From contig CALIRQ010000006.1 of assembly GCA_938042195.1 (NCBI GenBank), forward strand, positions 46,868-110,867: a DNA stretch of 64,000 bases, in the 5' to 3' direction. The notes beneath the pieces were generated by a model. The model saw only the letters and a program-made list of their open reading frames with translations, did no database searches and was not told where the DNA came from. Below, piece after piece: positions 13,431-39,294 of the stretch. Source of the stretch: an uncultured archaeon (GTDB lineage: Archaea; Thermoproteota; Bathyarchaeia; 40CM-2-53-6; CALIRQ01). How positions within the stretch are numbered: the stretch's first letter is position 1; every line of letters starts with the position of its first letter. The translations under genes were made by a program, and so were the position numbers.

Positions 13431-13564
13431 TGGCGGGCCCGCCGGGAATTGAACCCGGGGCCACCGGGTCTCTCCCCGGGGGTAAAAGCTTCGCCGGCGC
13501 CCCGCGACGCCACCGGTGCTCTACCTGGCTGAGCTACACGGCTCCTTTGGGAGCTTACGGGCCC
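13431..13564 (-). tRNA. tRNA-Lys(UUU) with three introns (9/10, 30/31, 37/38)
   Basis: Removing 13555-13535 (21 nt), 13512-13490 (23 nt) and 13482-13470 (13 nt) leaves a 77-nt cloverleaf: GGGCCCG UA GCUC AGCCAGGUA GAGC A CCGGG CUUUUAA CCCGG UGGCC CCGGG UUCAAUU CCCGG CGGGCCC G CCA. Each junction forms a BHB-like fold. Confidence 0.9.
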
Positions 13565-15691: not shown

Positions 15692-15816
15692 GCCCTGGTA
15701 GTATAGAGGTATTAAAGATACCGTAAAACCCGGCCTAGTATGTGCGGCTGTCGCCCGCACGACGCGGGTTCAAATCCCGCCCAAAAGGGACCATAATCCC
15801 TTGGCGAGGGGCGCCA
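15692..15816 (+). tRNA. tRNA-Asp(GUC) with two introns (15/16 and 68/69)
   Basis: Removing 15707-15728 (22 nt) and 15784-15808 (25 nt) gives a 78-nt cloverleaf: GCCCUGG UA GUAU AGCCCGGCCUA GUAU G UGCGG CUGUCGC CCGCA CGAC GCGGG UUCAAAU CCCGC CCAGGGC G CCA. Confidence 0.9.
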
Positions 15817-34663: not shown

Positions 34664-35401
34664 ATGGACCCGAAGAGCAGCTCGAGGCTGGCGGACCTGA
34701 AGTATAAGCTGATGACGGTCGAGCTCCTCAACCTAGCCAAGAATTACTATACCTACCGCGAGCTATCCCAGCTCACCGAGCTGCCGGAAACGGTCCTGAG
34801 CAGATATGTGAAGGGCCACGTGATGCCCACCATAGAAAGGGCCAGGAAGCTGAACAGGATCTTGGAGAAGAACCTGAGGCTGGAGGTGGAGCTCCAGAAG
34901 AGGATAAAGATGGATGATTATGGATTCTTCGATAATACCAAGATCATCTCCGATACCCTCCTCCTCGATAGGGCCGTCAACTGGGCCATCAATAGGTTCG
35001 CGGGAAAGCGGGTAACGAAGGTCCTCAGCGCCGCCGTCGACGGGATACCATTGGCCACCCTGCTGGCCCATAGGCTCGGGGTTGGCCTAGTAATAGCCAA
35101 GAAGGCGAAGGAGGTGGGCATAAAGGAGTTCATAGAGGAGGTTTACATCCCCTCTAAAGCCGCCATAATGGTCAGCCTATACATCCCCAGGGATGCCATA
35201 AAAAGGGGCGATGCCGTTCTGATAGCGGATGACGTCATCGATAGCGGCGAAACCCAAAGGGCCCTCATCAGGATGATCCATAAGGCCAAGGCGGAGGTGA
35301 GCGGCATCTTCTCCCTGATAGCCATAGGGGATGAATGGAGGAAGGGCATAGAGGAGGAGGTCAAATGCCCCATAGAGGTCGTGCTCACCATCAAGAAATG
35401 A
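34664..35401 (+). CDS. HTH-containing phosphoribosyltransferase-like protein (archaeal PurR/Apt-like regulator)
   Basis: N-terminal HTH ([23 protein letters not shown]) plus PRPP-binding loop [13 protein letters not shown]. Confidence 0.8.
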
Positions 35402-36450
35402 ATCGGGCGAGGCCGGCCAGATCCCAAGGTTCGTAAACGCCCCTATCTGTTATTATAGCGCTTATCAGGTCCGGCGGCGTCAAATCGAAGGCCGGGTTGA
35501 GGGCGCCGACGCCCTTCGGGGCTATGCGGCGGCCGGCGAAGCTCAGGACCTCCTCCGGGTCCCTCTCCTCGATCGCTACCTCCTCGGGCTTGGAGGAGAA
35601 ATCGAACGTCGATAGCGGCGCGGCCACGTAGAACGGGATGGAGAACCTCTTAGCGGCTATCGCCAAGCCCAAGGTCCCTATCTTGTTGGCGACATGGCCC
35701 GTCGCAAGGACCCTATCGGCGCCGACGATCGCCTTGGAAACGAGGCCCTTGCTCATCAAATGCGCGGCCATCCCATCAGTTATCAAGGTCACCGGTATGC
35801 CGCCCCGGCTCAGCTCGAAGGCCGTTAGCCTAGCGCCTTGGAGGAGTGGCCTCGTCTCGGTGGCTATGACCTCGATCCGCTTCCCGGCCTCAACGGCGGC
35901 CCTTATCACGCCCAAGGCCGTCCCATAGCCGGCGGTGGCCAGGGCCCCCGCATTCCGCTGGCCCTCGGGGCCAATTGCAGTGCGTTAGGACCCTATCGCC
36001 ATCCTCCAGCAGGGCGGCCCCGAATGCCCCGAGCCTCCTATTCGCCTCCATATCCTCCTCGGCTATCCGCTTCGCCTCCTCCACGACGGCTCCAACGATA
36101 TCGCCCGGGCCCGCCTCCCTCGCCTTCGATAGGATCCTGGAGATGGCCCATTGAAGATTGGCGCCGGTCGGCCTCGTGGCCCTCAAGGCCTCAGCGGCCC
36201 TTTCAAGATCGGATAGGATCCTCTCGCCCTTCCCCTTGGATCTGAGGGCCGCGAGAGCCATCCCGGCCGCGGCCGCAACCCCGATCGCCGGCGCGCCCCT
36301 AACCGCCATGTCCCTTATCGCCTCAGCCACATCGCGAGGAGTCCTGCAACGGATGCGGCGCAACCTCCAAGGCAGGGCCCTTTGATCTATTATGACGACC
36401 TCCCTGCCCCTTAGCTCGACCGGTCTTAGGTCAAATGCCCTCGATCCCAA
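35391..36450 (-). CDS. mtnA: S-methyl-5-thioribose-1-phosphate isomerase (MtnA / eIF-2B family), interrupted by a 22-nt intron
   Basis: Exon 1 (36450-35975) encodes [24 protein letters not shown] and LTHC-N. Exon 2 (35952-35391) encodes [36 protein letters not shown] and NPAFDLTP. Joined length is 1038 nt = 345 aa + stop. Start is TTG 36450 or ATG 36465. The ORF track shows two ORFs in different frames. Confidence 0.88.
35953..35974 (-). other. Putative pre-mRNA BHB/BHL intron in mtnA (UUGGCCCCGAGGGCCAGCGGAA)
   Basis: Fold: CUGC / AA|U bulge / UGGCCC-CGA-GGGCCA hairpin / GCGG / AA|U, closed by CGC/GCG. Excision at the two AA|U sites restores frame and the THCNAG motif. Confidence 0.85.
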
Positions 36451-36483
36451 AGCGGAACCTCCCATTGTTGAGCGGTCCGATCG

Positions 36484-36568
36484 CGATAAAAACCTTGGCC
36501 CAAGATCCGGTTCGGATGTTTGGGGAACGAATCGCTTAAGCGGAAGCGGCGATCGAATGGTTAAATAT
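36484..36568. promoter_or_regulatory. Back-to-back TATA-like boxes between mtnA and the splicing endonuclease gene
   Basis: TTTTAT on the minus strand (about 36486-36491) and TTAAATAT on the plus strand (36561-36568), each roughly 25-40 nt upstream of a start codon. Confidence 0.5.
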
Positions 36569-36592
36569 GACTTGGGATGAGGTAGGGCGGCC

Positions 36593-37105
36593 TTGGAAGG
36601 GGAAGCCCAAAGGTTCGATGGCCGCATCCGCGGGAGGGCGGCGGTGATACCTAACGGCGGGGCCATAGGGGAGCTCAGGGAGAGGGGGTTCGGTGAGCCG
36701 AGGAATGGCGATCTCATACTCTCCCCGTACGAGGCGTTCTACCTCATCGAGAAGGGAAAGCTCAGGATATTGGATCCTAAGGGGGGAAGGGAGCTATCGC
36801 TCGAGGAGATCGTCGGGAGGCTATCGAGGGGCAGGGCCGAGGTTTGGCTGAAGTATTTGGTCTTCAAGGACCTCAGGGATCGCGGCTACATAGTGAGGGA
36901 CTTCAAGGGGATGAACTTGGAGGTCTATGGGAAGGGGCCCCAGAGGAGGATCGCGAGGATCATTTACGAGGGCGGGGAGGCGAGCTTGGATGAGCTCAGG
37001 AGGGCGCTCAGGGCATCAGCGAGGGCCGGAAGGGAGCTCATATTGGCGGTCGTGGATAGGAGGACCGACATAGTGTATTATTCCCTGGGCGAGCTGAAGC
37101 TGTGA
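36593..37105 (+). CDS. endA: tRNA splicing endonuclease, structural (beta) subunit
   Basis: LSPYEAFYLIEKG, KYLVFKDLRDRGYIV and LILAVVDRRTDIVYYSL (L10 loop/beta9). The catalytic Tyr position is kept (LEVY), but there is no His after it and the catalytic Lys segment reads RAGRE. Confidence 0.87.
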   Translation: MEGEAQRFDGRIRGRAAVIPNGGAIGELRERGFGEPRNGDLILSPYEAFYLIEKGKLRILDPKGGRELSLEEIVGRLSRGRAEVWLKYLVFKDLRDRGYIVRDFKGMNLEVYGKGPQRRIARIIYEGGEASLDELRRALRASARAGRELILAVVDRRTDIVYYSLGELKL

Positions 37106-38437: not shown

Positions 38438-38526
38438 GCCTTCGGGCAAGGCCCATGGGATTATCCCTCAGGCCTCTCCAATCCCGATAATATTAAATAG
38501 GCGGGTTTTCCCTTCCAACGTTCAAG

Positions 38527-38624
38527 GCATCCGGGGGAGCTGGGGGAACCCGGCTGAGAGGGTGGCAGATCCGCCACCGACCCTTGGAACCTGATCCGGG
38601 TAATGCCGGCGAAGGGAGGGATGC
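38527..38624 (+). promoter_or_regulatory. TPP (THI-box) riboswitch
   Basis: P1 GCAUCC/GGAUGC; conserved GCUGAGA, GACCC, GAACCUGAUC and GGGUAAUGCCGGCGAAGGGA; TATA-like ATTAAATA about 30 nt upstream; directly upstream of thiW. Confidence 0.93.
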
Positions 38625-38724
38625 GGTGGATGGGCTATCCGCCGAAGCCCAGCCGAGCGCTGGGGCTCCTTCTCCGATCCGGATCCGTTCCCCCGGGTGC
38701 ATCGAAGCTCGGAGGTGAATGCAT

Positions 38725-39294
38725 ATGAAGGCTGGCGAAAGGGGGTTGACCCTGAATTTGATCCTCGCGGCTTGCCTAACGGCCTTGGGGGTGGCCATAG
38801 CGCCCTTCTTCTATTTCCCGTTTCTGGGAACGAGGGCTTTCCCAGGGCAGCATTTGATCAACGCGCTAACGGGCGTCATCCTCGGGCCTTGGTGGGGCGC
38901 CCTGGTCGCCGTCCTGATAGGCATCGTTAGGAACCTGCTCGGCGTGGGGACCATATTCGCCTTCCCGGGCGGGATCCCCGGCGCCATCGTGGTCGGCTTG
39001 GCCTATGGGGCAATGCGGCGCTTCAAGGGGAGGCGCTTCCGCTACGCGGCGGCCCTGTTCGAGCCCCTTGGGACCGTTCTGATAGGAGCGACTTTCTCGC
39101 TCTTCTTGGTTGCGCCCATAATAGGCTGGAGGCCCCTCTTGAGCTTGATTGAGGGATTGGGCCCGCTCCCAGCGCTCCTAACGCTCTGGTTCGGCTGGTC
39201 GATAAGCTCCGTGACCGGCAGCGCGATGGGCTATATTGTCCTCCTAATCCTTGATAGGGTGGGCCTCATGGGCAAATTGTCCAAATCGCCTTGA
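38725..39294 (+). CDS. thiW: ECF-type thiazole/thiamine precursor transporter S component ThiW
   Basis: TRAFPGQHLINAL, LGVGTIFAFPGGIPGA, EPLGT; fully hydrophobic. Confidence 0.9.
   Translation: MKAGERGLTLNLILAACLTALGVAIAPFFYFPFLGTRAFPGQHLINALTGVILGPWWGALVAVLIGIVRNLLGVGTIFAFPGGIPGAIVVGLAYGAMRRFKGRRFRYAAALFEPLGTVLIGATFSLFLVAPIIGWRPLLSLIEGLGPLPALLTLWFGWSISSVTGSAMGYIVLLILDRVGLMGKLSKSP

Follow-up and report, generated by a model that had tools for sequence, protein, structure and literature searches.

A conserved insert with the features of an endonuclease-dependent intron splits the active-site motif of mtnA in uncultured archaea

Introduction

The cbf5 gene of Desulfurococcales and Sulfolobales is interrupted at its catalytic Asp codon by an intron that has an unconventional bulge-helix-bulge (BHB) motif and is processed by a hetero-oligomeric endonuclease (Yokobori 2009, PMC2738675; see also Watanabe 2002 and Yoshinari 2006). 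According to a 2020 study of the intron in the 5′ untranslated region (UTR) of HVO_1309 of Haloferax volcanii, cbf5 was the sole further BHB intron reported in an mRNA (Schwarz 2020, PMC7714728), and a 2023 review gives only cbf5 and one Haloferax 5′ UTR, adding that more probably remain to be found. Here we describe a 22-nt insert in mtnA on a 64,000-nt stretch (hereafter the window) of contig CALIRQ010000006.1, which belongs to an uncultured archaeon labeled as Bathyarchaeia. We regard it as very probable that this insert is a conserved archaeal intron of the BHB or bulge-helix-loop (BHL) type in the mtnA pre-mRNA, with splicing predicted from the gene, its fold and its relatives.

The introns of cbf5 and mtnA have much in common. 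Both are short, lie inside coding sequence and show an unconventional, relaxed BHB motif that is predicted to be cut between the second and third bulge nucleotides, and in both genes the intron sits in or beside the codon of a catalytic residue. Both are patchily distributed, which suggests gain and loss. The cbf5 intron occurs in hosts with hetero-oligomeric endonucleases, and the mtnA intron probably does so. They differ in the gene concerned, as mtnA encodes a metabolic sugar-phosphate isomerase and cbf5 an RNA pseudouridine synthase, and in lineage, as the mtnA intron is found in uncultured archaea, of which the one close relative with a name bears the Bathyarchaeia label, and that of cbf5 in Desulfurococcales and Sulfolobales. 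They also differ in phase, the mtnA intron following the second base of an Asn codon and the cbf5 intron the first base of an Asp codon. Splicing has been shown experimentally for cbf5, whereas it is predicted for mtnA.

Similar to the introns of archaeal tRNA and rRNA genes, which have the hBHBh′ motif and are processed by EndA and then RtcB, the mtnA element has a 4-bp helix and bulges on opposite strands, each on the 3′ side of its helix strand. It also shares their cleavage rule, and a circle of the excised intron is to be expected in both cases. In contrast to those introns, it is not embedded in a tRNA body, and both exon strands are constrained by coding. Its 3′ site is a 1 × 3 or 1 × 5 loop or a 2-nt bulge, whereas that of tRNA and rRNA introns is a strict 3-nt bulge. 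The HVO_1309 intron is likewise located in an mRNA, has BHB sites and is a substrate of the splicing endonuclease. It differs in its position in a 5′ UTR, in the α2 enzyme of its host and in its canonical motif, and the mtnA intron, unlike that of HVO_1309, would decide whether the protein can be made at all. In the eukaryotic splicing of HAC1 and XBP1 mRNA by IRE1 and RtcB, a small frame-shifting intron (26 nt in XBP1) is cut at stem-loops and the exons are joined by a tRNA ligase, so that a different protein results. That system differs from mtnA in having an unrelated endonuclease and another recognition motif, and IRE1 splicing is regulated by stress.

The mtnA Gene and Its Predicted Spliced Product

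The mtnA gene is located on the minus strand and reads, in RNA sense, ...GUC CUA ACG CAC UGC AA^UUGGCCCCGAGGGCCAGCGGAA^U GCG GGG GCC CUG GCC ACC..., so that the 22-nt insert UUGGCCCCGAGGGCCAGCGGAA (35974..35953) splits the Asn codon of the THCNAG motif. Exon 1 (35975..36465, minus strand) extends from ATG 36465, or from TTG 36450, to the first two bases (AA) of this codon, and exon 2 (35391..35952, minus strand) opens with the U that completes AAU and ends with the stop codon at 35393-35391. Without splicing, the reading frame (ORF 35890..36717) runs into a TGA at 35892-35890, and the remaining part of MtnA is encoded in a different frame by a second open reading frame (ORF) at 35391..35915. 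Once the 22 nt are removed, a single ORF remains; its product has 350 aa if translation starts at ATG 36465 and 345 aa if it starts at TTG 36450. A sequence-only reading of this stretch, made without database searches, had placed a frame break at this motif, followed by the same TGA, and had claimed that excision restores the frame, THCNAG and a 345-aa protein; our reading of the sequence and its ORFs agrees with both claims. Since each end of the insert has an AAU, an identical product results from four deletion registers, and the register 35974..35953 was chosen because the bulge rule alone picks it among the four.

The spliced product scores 437 bits against NF004326 (NCBIfam; cut-off 271) and 395 bits against the mtnA model TIGR00512 (cut-off 279), and its score of 214 against the ribose-1,5-bisphosphate isomerase model falls under the cut-off of 314. 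Its alignment with the structure of Thermotoga maritima MtnA (PDB 1T9K; 337 bits) is free of gaps through LTHCNAGALAT. These matches identify the predicted spliced product as MtnA, the S-methyl-5-thioribose-1-phosphate isomerase of the IF-2B superfamily, with an intact THCNAG motif and the corresponding predicted activity. The Cys of this motif, one codon before the split, is reportedly the catalytic residue, on the basis of structural work on Bacillus subtilis MtnA.

Fold of the Insert and the Proposed Splicing Pathway

When positions 35995-35935 were folded in RNA sense and unconstrained, the minimum free energy (MFE) structure had -33.9 kcal/mol (z = -2.8), and one of 200 shuffled sequences gave an equally good fold. 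The whole element spans 35940..35995 on the minus strand. Its outer exon-exon helix consists of 9 bp (35995-35987/35948-35940) and a further 4 bp, CGCA/UGCG (35984-35981/35952-35949), with an AA bulge between the two parts. The central helix of 4 bp pairs exon CUGC with intron GCGG (35980-35977/35958-35955). It is followed by the 3-nt 5′ bulge AAU (35976-35974), the 6-bp hairpin UGGCCC-CGA-GGGCCA (35973-35959) and the 3′ bulge AA (35954-35953), to which U 35952 is added if its A-U pair opens. The sequence-only reading had described the central helix, the AAU bulge and the 6-bp hairpin as they appear in the MFE fold; its second AAU bulge, facing a single A, is not reproduced as drawn, as the U pairs with the opposing A and leaves a 2-nt bulge or a 1 × 3 internal loop.

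The 4-bp central helix is the one expected of BHB introns, and a cut after the second bulge nucleotide at both sites excises exactly 22 nt. The excised segment starts with the last nucleotide of the 5′ bulge, continues through the 6-bp hairpin, whose loop has 3 nt, and the GCGG strand of the central helix, and ends with the first two nucleotides of the 3′ bulge. The helix is oriented as in the tRNA BHB motif, with its 5′ strand coming from the 5′ exon and its 3′ strand from the intron; this orientation was derived from the canonical tRNA intron position 37/38. Because of its 3′ site, the motif belongs to the relaxed (BHL-like) rather than the strict type, as does that of cbf5.

In the proposed pathway, the mtnA transcript would fold so that exon CUGC (the Cys codon plus the preceding base) pairs with intron GCGG, the AA^U of the 5′ strand being closed by the intron hairpin and that of the 3′ strand by pairing of the Thr-His codons with the Ala-Gly codons. 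A tRNA-splicing endonuclease, probably a heteromeric (αβ)2 enzyme, would cut after the second nucleotide at each site, and a ligase of the RtcB type would join the exons to ...CAC UGC AAU GCG.... The predicted exon-exon junction is CACUGCAA^UGCGGGGGCC, which begins with UGCGGGG 3′ of the joint, and the excised 22-mer would probably be circularized. Full-length MtnA with THCNAG would thus be made only from spliced mRNA, and unspliced RNA would give a truncated product with an out-of-frame tail. MtnA activity would then depend on the tRNA-splicing machinery, as the sequence-only reading had proposed.

Homologous Inserts in Related Genes

Full-length homologs of the spliced protein share at most 63% identity with it. 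A protein search with the C-terminal piece revealed closer relatives, all of them as fragments of 140-196 aa located on long contigs. Every close relative whose DNA was fetched has neighboring calls of two IF-2B genes, with an insert exactly where the window has its own. These inserts are 23 nt (loop AUCG or AUCC; 89-97% protein identity), 32 nt (70%), 31 nt (63%) and 26 nt (61%) in length, and their hairpins, for example CAGCCGGG/CCCGGCUG, are unrelated in sequence between lineages yet pair throughout. Four further protein fragments led to 31-nt variants, one with the Ala codon GCA and one with a 3′ bulge ending in C; at locus L217, where the 3′ bulge ends in C, the spliced codon is AAC and still encodes Asn. 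The closest named relative is Candidatus Bathyarchaeia archaeon GCA_038847005.1, with 97% identity in the C-terminal half.

Metagenomes were scanned with the pattern CACTGYAA-N(10-40)-GCRGANTGCGGGNGC, which returned 118 stretches, approximately 83 of them in mtnA context (...VLTHC^NAGALAT...) and 34 chance matches. In total we counted 56 distinct introns of 19-44 nt, selected by ...LTHC upstream and NAGALAT... downstream, and three more through proteins, giving about 59 variants. The true diversity is probably larger because the pattern misses variants with other codons. Near-identical contigs are present in the metagenomes SRR28530380 and SRR28530381 and in the JGI metagenomes 3300005860, 3300005573 and 3300009503. 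With cuts after the second bulge nucleotide, the frame and THCN^AG are recovered both in the window and in 99 of 99 mtnA matches, a set that demanded only ...THC upstream and NAG... downstream. The motif is also restored where the 5′ and 3′ bulge bases differ (AAA/AGU, AAA/AUU and AAA/AUC).

Lineages found through proteins have GCG (GCA in L216) as the Ala codon after the intron, compared with GCG in 9 of 61 intronless homologs; synonymous sites flanking the intron thus look constrained. A search of species-representative genomes with the spliced protein gave, among the best 80 matches, intronless relatives only (at most 58% identity); the window's own genome and the close relatives were not among them, probably because split genes rank lower. 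In a rough neighbor-joining tree of spliced and intronless proteins, computed without support values, intron-bearing clades are interspersed among intronless ones. This unsupported tree suggests repeated loss or gain of the intron, and no count of events is drawn from it.

Three further observations concern these loci. Partial MtnA proteins of Nitrosocaldus (P0184) and Nitrosotalea (P0225) are truncated where their contigs end and were rejected as evidence for an intron in ammonia oxidizers. Many MtnA homologs from JGI data (P0129-P0240) have recurring lengths of exactly 300, 293, 250 or 240 aa, compared with about 345 aa; they could be truncated gene calls or reflect a second, more N-terminal interruption in other lineages. 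In the clade with the 31-nt intron, a gene of the phage-integrase family (PF16795) lies directly downstream of mtnA (L089, 3341-4648; L092, 3904-4602; L219, 2341-3555).

Covariation and the Possibility of Translational Recoding

For the first five pairs of the inner hairpin, counted from both ends of the insert, 272 of 280 cells hold standard pairs, whereas shuffling gave a mean of 205 and a maximum of 223. In a loop-trimmed alignment, changes on both sides are seen at all five inner pairs (5/5), and 97.5% of cells pair, compared with 27-43% when the partners are slid. The covariation expected of a closing helix is thus provided by the inner helix; the outer helix has three invariant pairs that are constrained by codons. 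The central helix, CUGY/GCRG, is present in all protein-found variants. Among the MFE folds of the 56 introns, 47 show the 5′ site (AAU or AAA) as a clean bulge of 3 nt, and central helix, 5′ bulge and hairpin occur together in 41. The sequence-only reading had proposed an alignment of related mtnA genes to look for intron presence and covariation, and this alignment yielded both inserts at the same site and compensatory changes in the hairpin.

The same variants bear on the possibility that the RNA remains uncut and that the ribosome frameshifts or hops across the insert, as in the bypassing of phage T4 gene 60. An AAU on either side of the window's insert would in principle let peptidyl-tRNA(Asn) take off and land on matching codons, and a stable hairpin follows the take-off site. 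In 31 of the 56 introns, however, the 5′ bulge is AAA, which without splicing is a Lys codon and becomes Asn only through splicing; with AAU, AGU or AUU as landing codons, hopping would miss the invariant Asn. The lengths of 19-44 nt fall into all three phases, which no single frameshift rule fits, and any insert whose length is divisible by three has a stop codon in frame. Neither matching take-off and landing codons nor a fixed slippery shift was found across the variants, and what is conserved is a BHB-like geometry and not a slippery sequence. We consider recoding very unlikely.

Selection on Both Exons and the Remaining Alternatives

Relative to related genes, the ratio of nonsynonymous to synonymous substitution rates (dN/dS) is 0.14-0.34 for exon 1 and 0.05-0.22 for exon 2. 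The first 20 codons of exon 2, which in unspliced RNA come after the frame is lost and before any restart codon, show nonsynonymous/synonymous changes of 0/7 against L081 and 0/15 against L097. These values indicate strong purifying selection on both exons, as estimated from lineages down to about 60% identity.

This selection bears on whether the gene is a pseudogene or encodes two separate polypeptides, the insert being a neutral inactivating or splitting insertion. Gene callers annotate two fragments in every relative and no spliced product is on record, both of which would fit such a split. However, purifying selection acts on both halves, including the 20 codons before the first possible restart, and on this ground we exclude a pseudogene and an enzyme of two polypeptides. 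At least 56 variants of the insert also share a single site and a covarying structure, and the break falls inside the THCNAG motif. A disabled or divided gene is as improbable an explanation as recoding.

An even smaller probability is assigned to a small mobile element, such as a palindrome resembling a miniature inverted-repeat transposable element, or a self-splicing intron. The short palindromic hairpin and the 3-nt direct repeat AAT that flanks it in the window would be in keeping with an element of this kind. The sequence nevertheless occurs only once in the window, even with three mismatches allowed, the flanking repeat is missing in most variants (AAA...AGT and similar), and lengths of 19-44 nt are far below the size of group I or group II ribozymes; in addition, the site is identical in all lineages. 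Finally, an assembly or sequencing artefact in the window, a general possibility with metagenome assemblies, can be dismissed because independent assemblies from four sources (JGI, NCBI, ENA and Logan) contain this insert or a homolog of it whose sequence is specific to the lineage.

Observations That Weigh Against a Spliced Intron

Several results count against the interpretation of the insert as a spliced intron. The strict hBHBh′ form, with two 3-nt bulges on opposite strands and each 3′ of its helix strand, is not present at this locus. A relaxed BHB scanner returned approximately 340 motifs in the window compared with 269-329 in shuffled sequences, and the fold alone is not significant because BHB-like geometry is about as frequent after shuffling. 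The full motif appears in the MFE structure of just 36-41 of the 56 variants. The Thr wobble base pairs with the Ala codon in 19 of 55 rows, only where Thr is ACG; in the two-thirds of variants with ACC or ACU this pair fails, and several of their MFE folds show a 1 × 5 internal loop at the 3′ site. For the scan-derived variants, the search pattern itself prescribed the central helix and 3′ flank, which leaves about 10 protein-found variants as independent support for these two parts. An exact look-up of seven predicted full-length spliced products from six lineages in a collection of 15 billion proteins found none of them. Neither a catalytic endonuclease subunit or paralogue nor a ligase was found within the 64-kb window.

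Inside mtnA, the same scanner reported six motifs, one of which is exactly 35974..35953, and the chance of such a fold for a given site and length is about 2e-5. The excess over chance is the exact frame-restoring register together with conservation. Generic BHB scans of the window for further mRNA introns were dropped, as their matches stayed at the level of shuffled sequence and a frame-joining filter mostly fused neighboring genes. When 12 segments spanning the junction were joined into one chimeric query for a protein search, all matches were long fusion proteins (P0241-P0278); these combine an IF-2B/MtnA domain with a glycosyltransferase (PF00535), a TsaD-like domain (PF00814) or a class II aldolase (PF00596). 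Taken with these points, the comparative results, which are decisive here (conserved site, covariation and purifying selection), support the claim of the sequence-only reading that an intron lies inside this protein-coding gene, with splicing as the predicted outcome.

Splicing Machinery and Genomic Neighborhood

A gene for a tRNA-intron-endonuclease homolog of 170 aa (36593..37105, plus strand; Pfam PF02778 and PF01974) is transcribed divergently from mtnA across a 127-bp spacer. Aligned with Methanocaldococcus jannaschii EndA (1A79), it has no counterpart of the catalytic His, where the alignment is gapped, and carries Arg/Glu in place of the Lys; it is probably the structural, β-like subunit of a heteromeric enzyme. 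One study states that relaxed motifs are cut only by (αβ)2 and ε2 endonucleases (PMC5829648).

Two tRNA genes of the window carry inserts, and both were missed by ARAGORN and found by Rfam (RF00005). The first (13434..13543, minus strand) is approximately 36 nt longer than the model in the anticodon region (45 nt compared with 9), and in the second (15696..15783, plus strand) 27 nt are inserted at a non-canonical position in the D-loop region. For the latter, the model matches positions 5-66 only, and the acceptor end may hold a further small insert. As putative introns, these inserts are supporting context for a host in which introns need the splicing endonuclease, and the one in the D region for broad specificity of that enzyme.

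At L001, L003-L006 and L025 and at most intron loci, a tRNA-intron-endonuclease homolog lies within a few kb of mtnA. The endA-mtnA neighborhood is also found at intronless archaeal loci (Bathyarchaeia, Nitrososphaerota and Methanomethylicia), with no obvious functional reason, and we regard it as old synteny and not a consequence of the intron because intronless loci share it. On the other side, the 3′ end of mtnA overlaps a convergent 245-aa ORF with a phosphoribosyltransferase domain (34664-35401, plus strand) by 11 nt (35391-35401), and this overlap is kept in relatives. Just downstream of hisS in the window, a thiamine pyrophosphate (TPP) riboswitch was identified at 38523-38635 (plus strand; Rfam RF00059, 71.7 bits, gathering score 54.3). 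It is followed by a hydrophobic ORF of 191 aa (38719-39294, plus strand), by its look a candidate transporter of a thiamine precursor.

Implications

A full-text literature search, in which subscription journals are thinly covered so that a prior mention is possible, returned no mention of an intron in mtnA or aIF-2BI, in agreement with the sequence-only reading, which knew of no such report. Since 2002, cbf5 has been the lone archaeal coding sequence known to carry an endonuclease-dependent intron; mtnA would be the second archaeal gene known with an intron of this type in its coding sequence, an instance of a known mechanism and not a new one.

A bolder and, in our judgment, rather unlikely proposal is that the mtnA intron is no neutral relic but a conserved control point retained within the active-site motif, which would tie the production of MtnA to the activity of both the tRNA-splicing endonuclease and the ligase. 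Together with cbf5, mtnA would then exemplify a rule by which such introns act as all-or-none gates at catalytic-site codons, and more genes of this kind would be hidden in the "fragmented" gene calls of uncultured Thermoproteota. This proposal draws on the divergent endonuclease subunit gene that shares the 127-bp spacer with mtnA and on the location of the cbf5 intron at a catalytic Asp codon.

The gene concerned is that of an ordinary metabolic enzyme, with one fixed intron site and dozens of natural variants across many uncultured lineages. The variants form a natural mutational series for the substrate rules of endonucleases with relaxed specificity, and the mtnA intron offers a test case for intron gain and loss in archaea. 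For genome annotation, intron-bearing mtnA genes are called as two fragments or as "partial," and the methionine-salvage capacity of the genomes that carry them is consequently understated.

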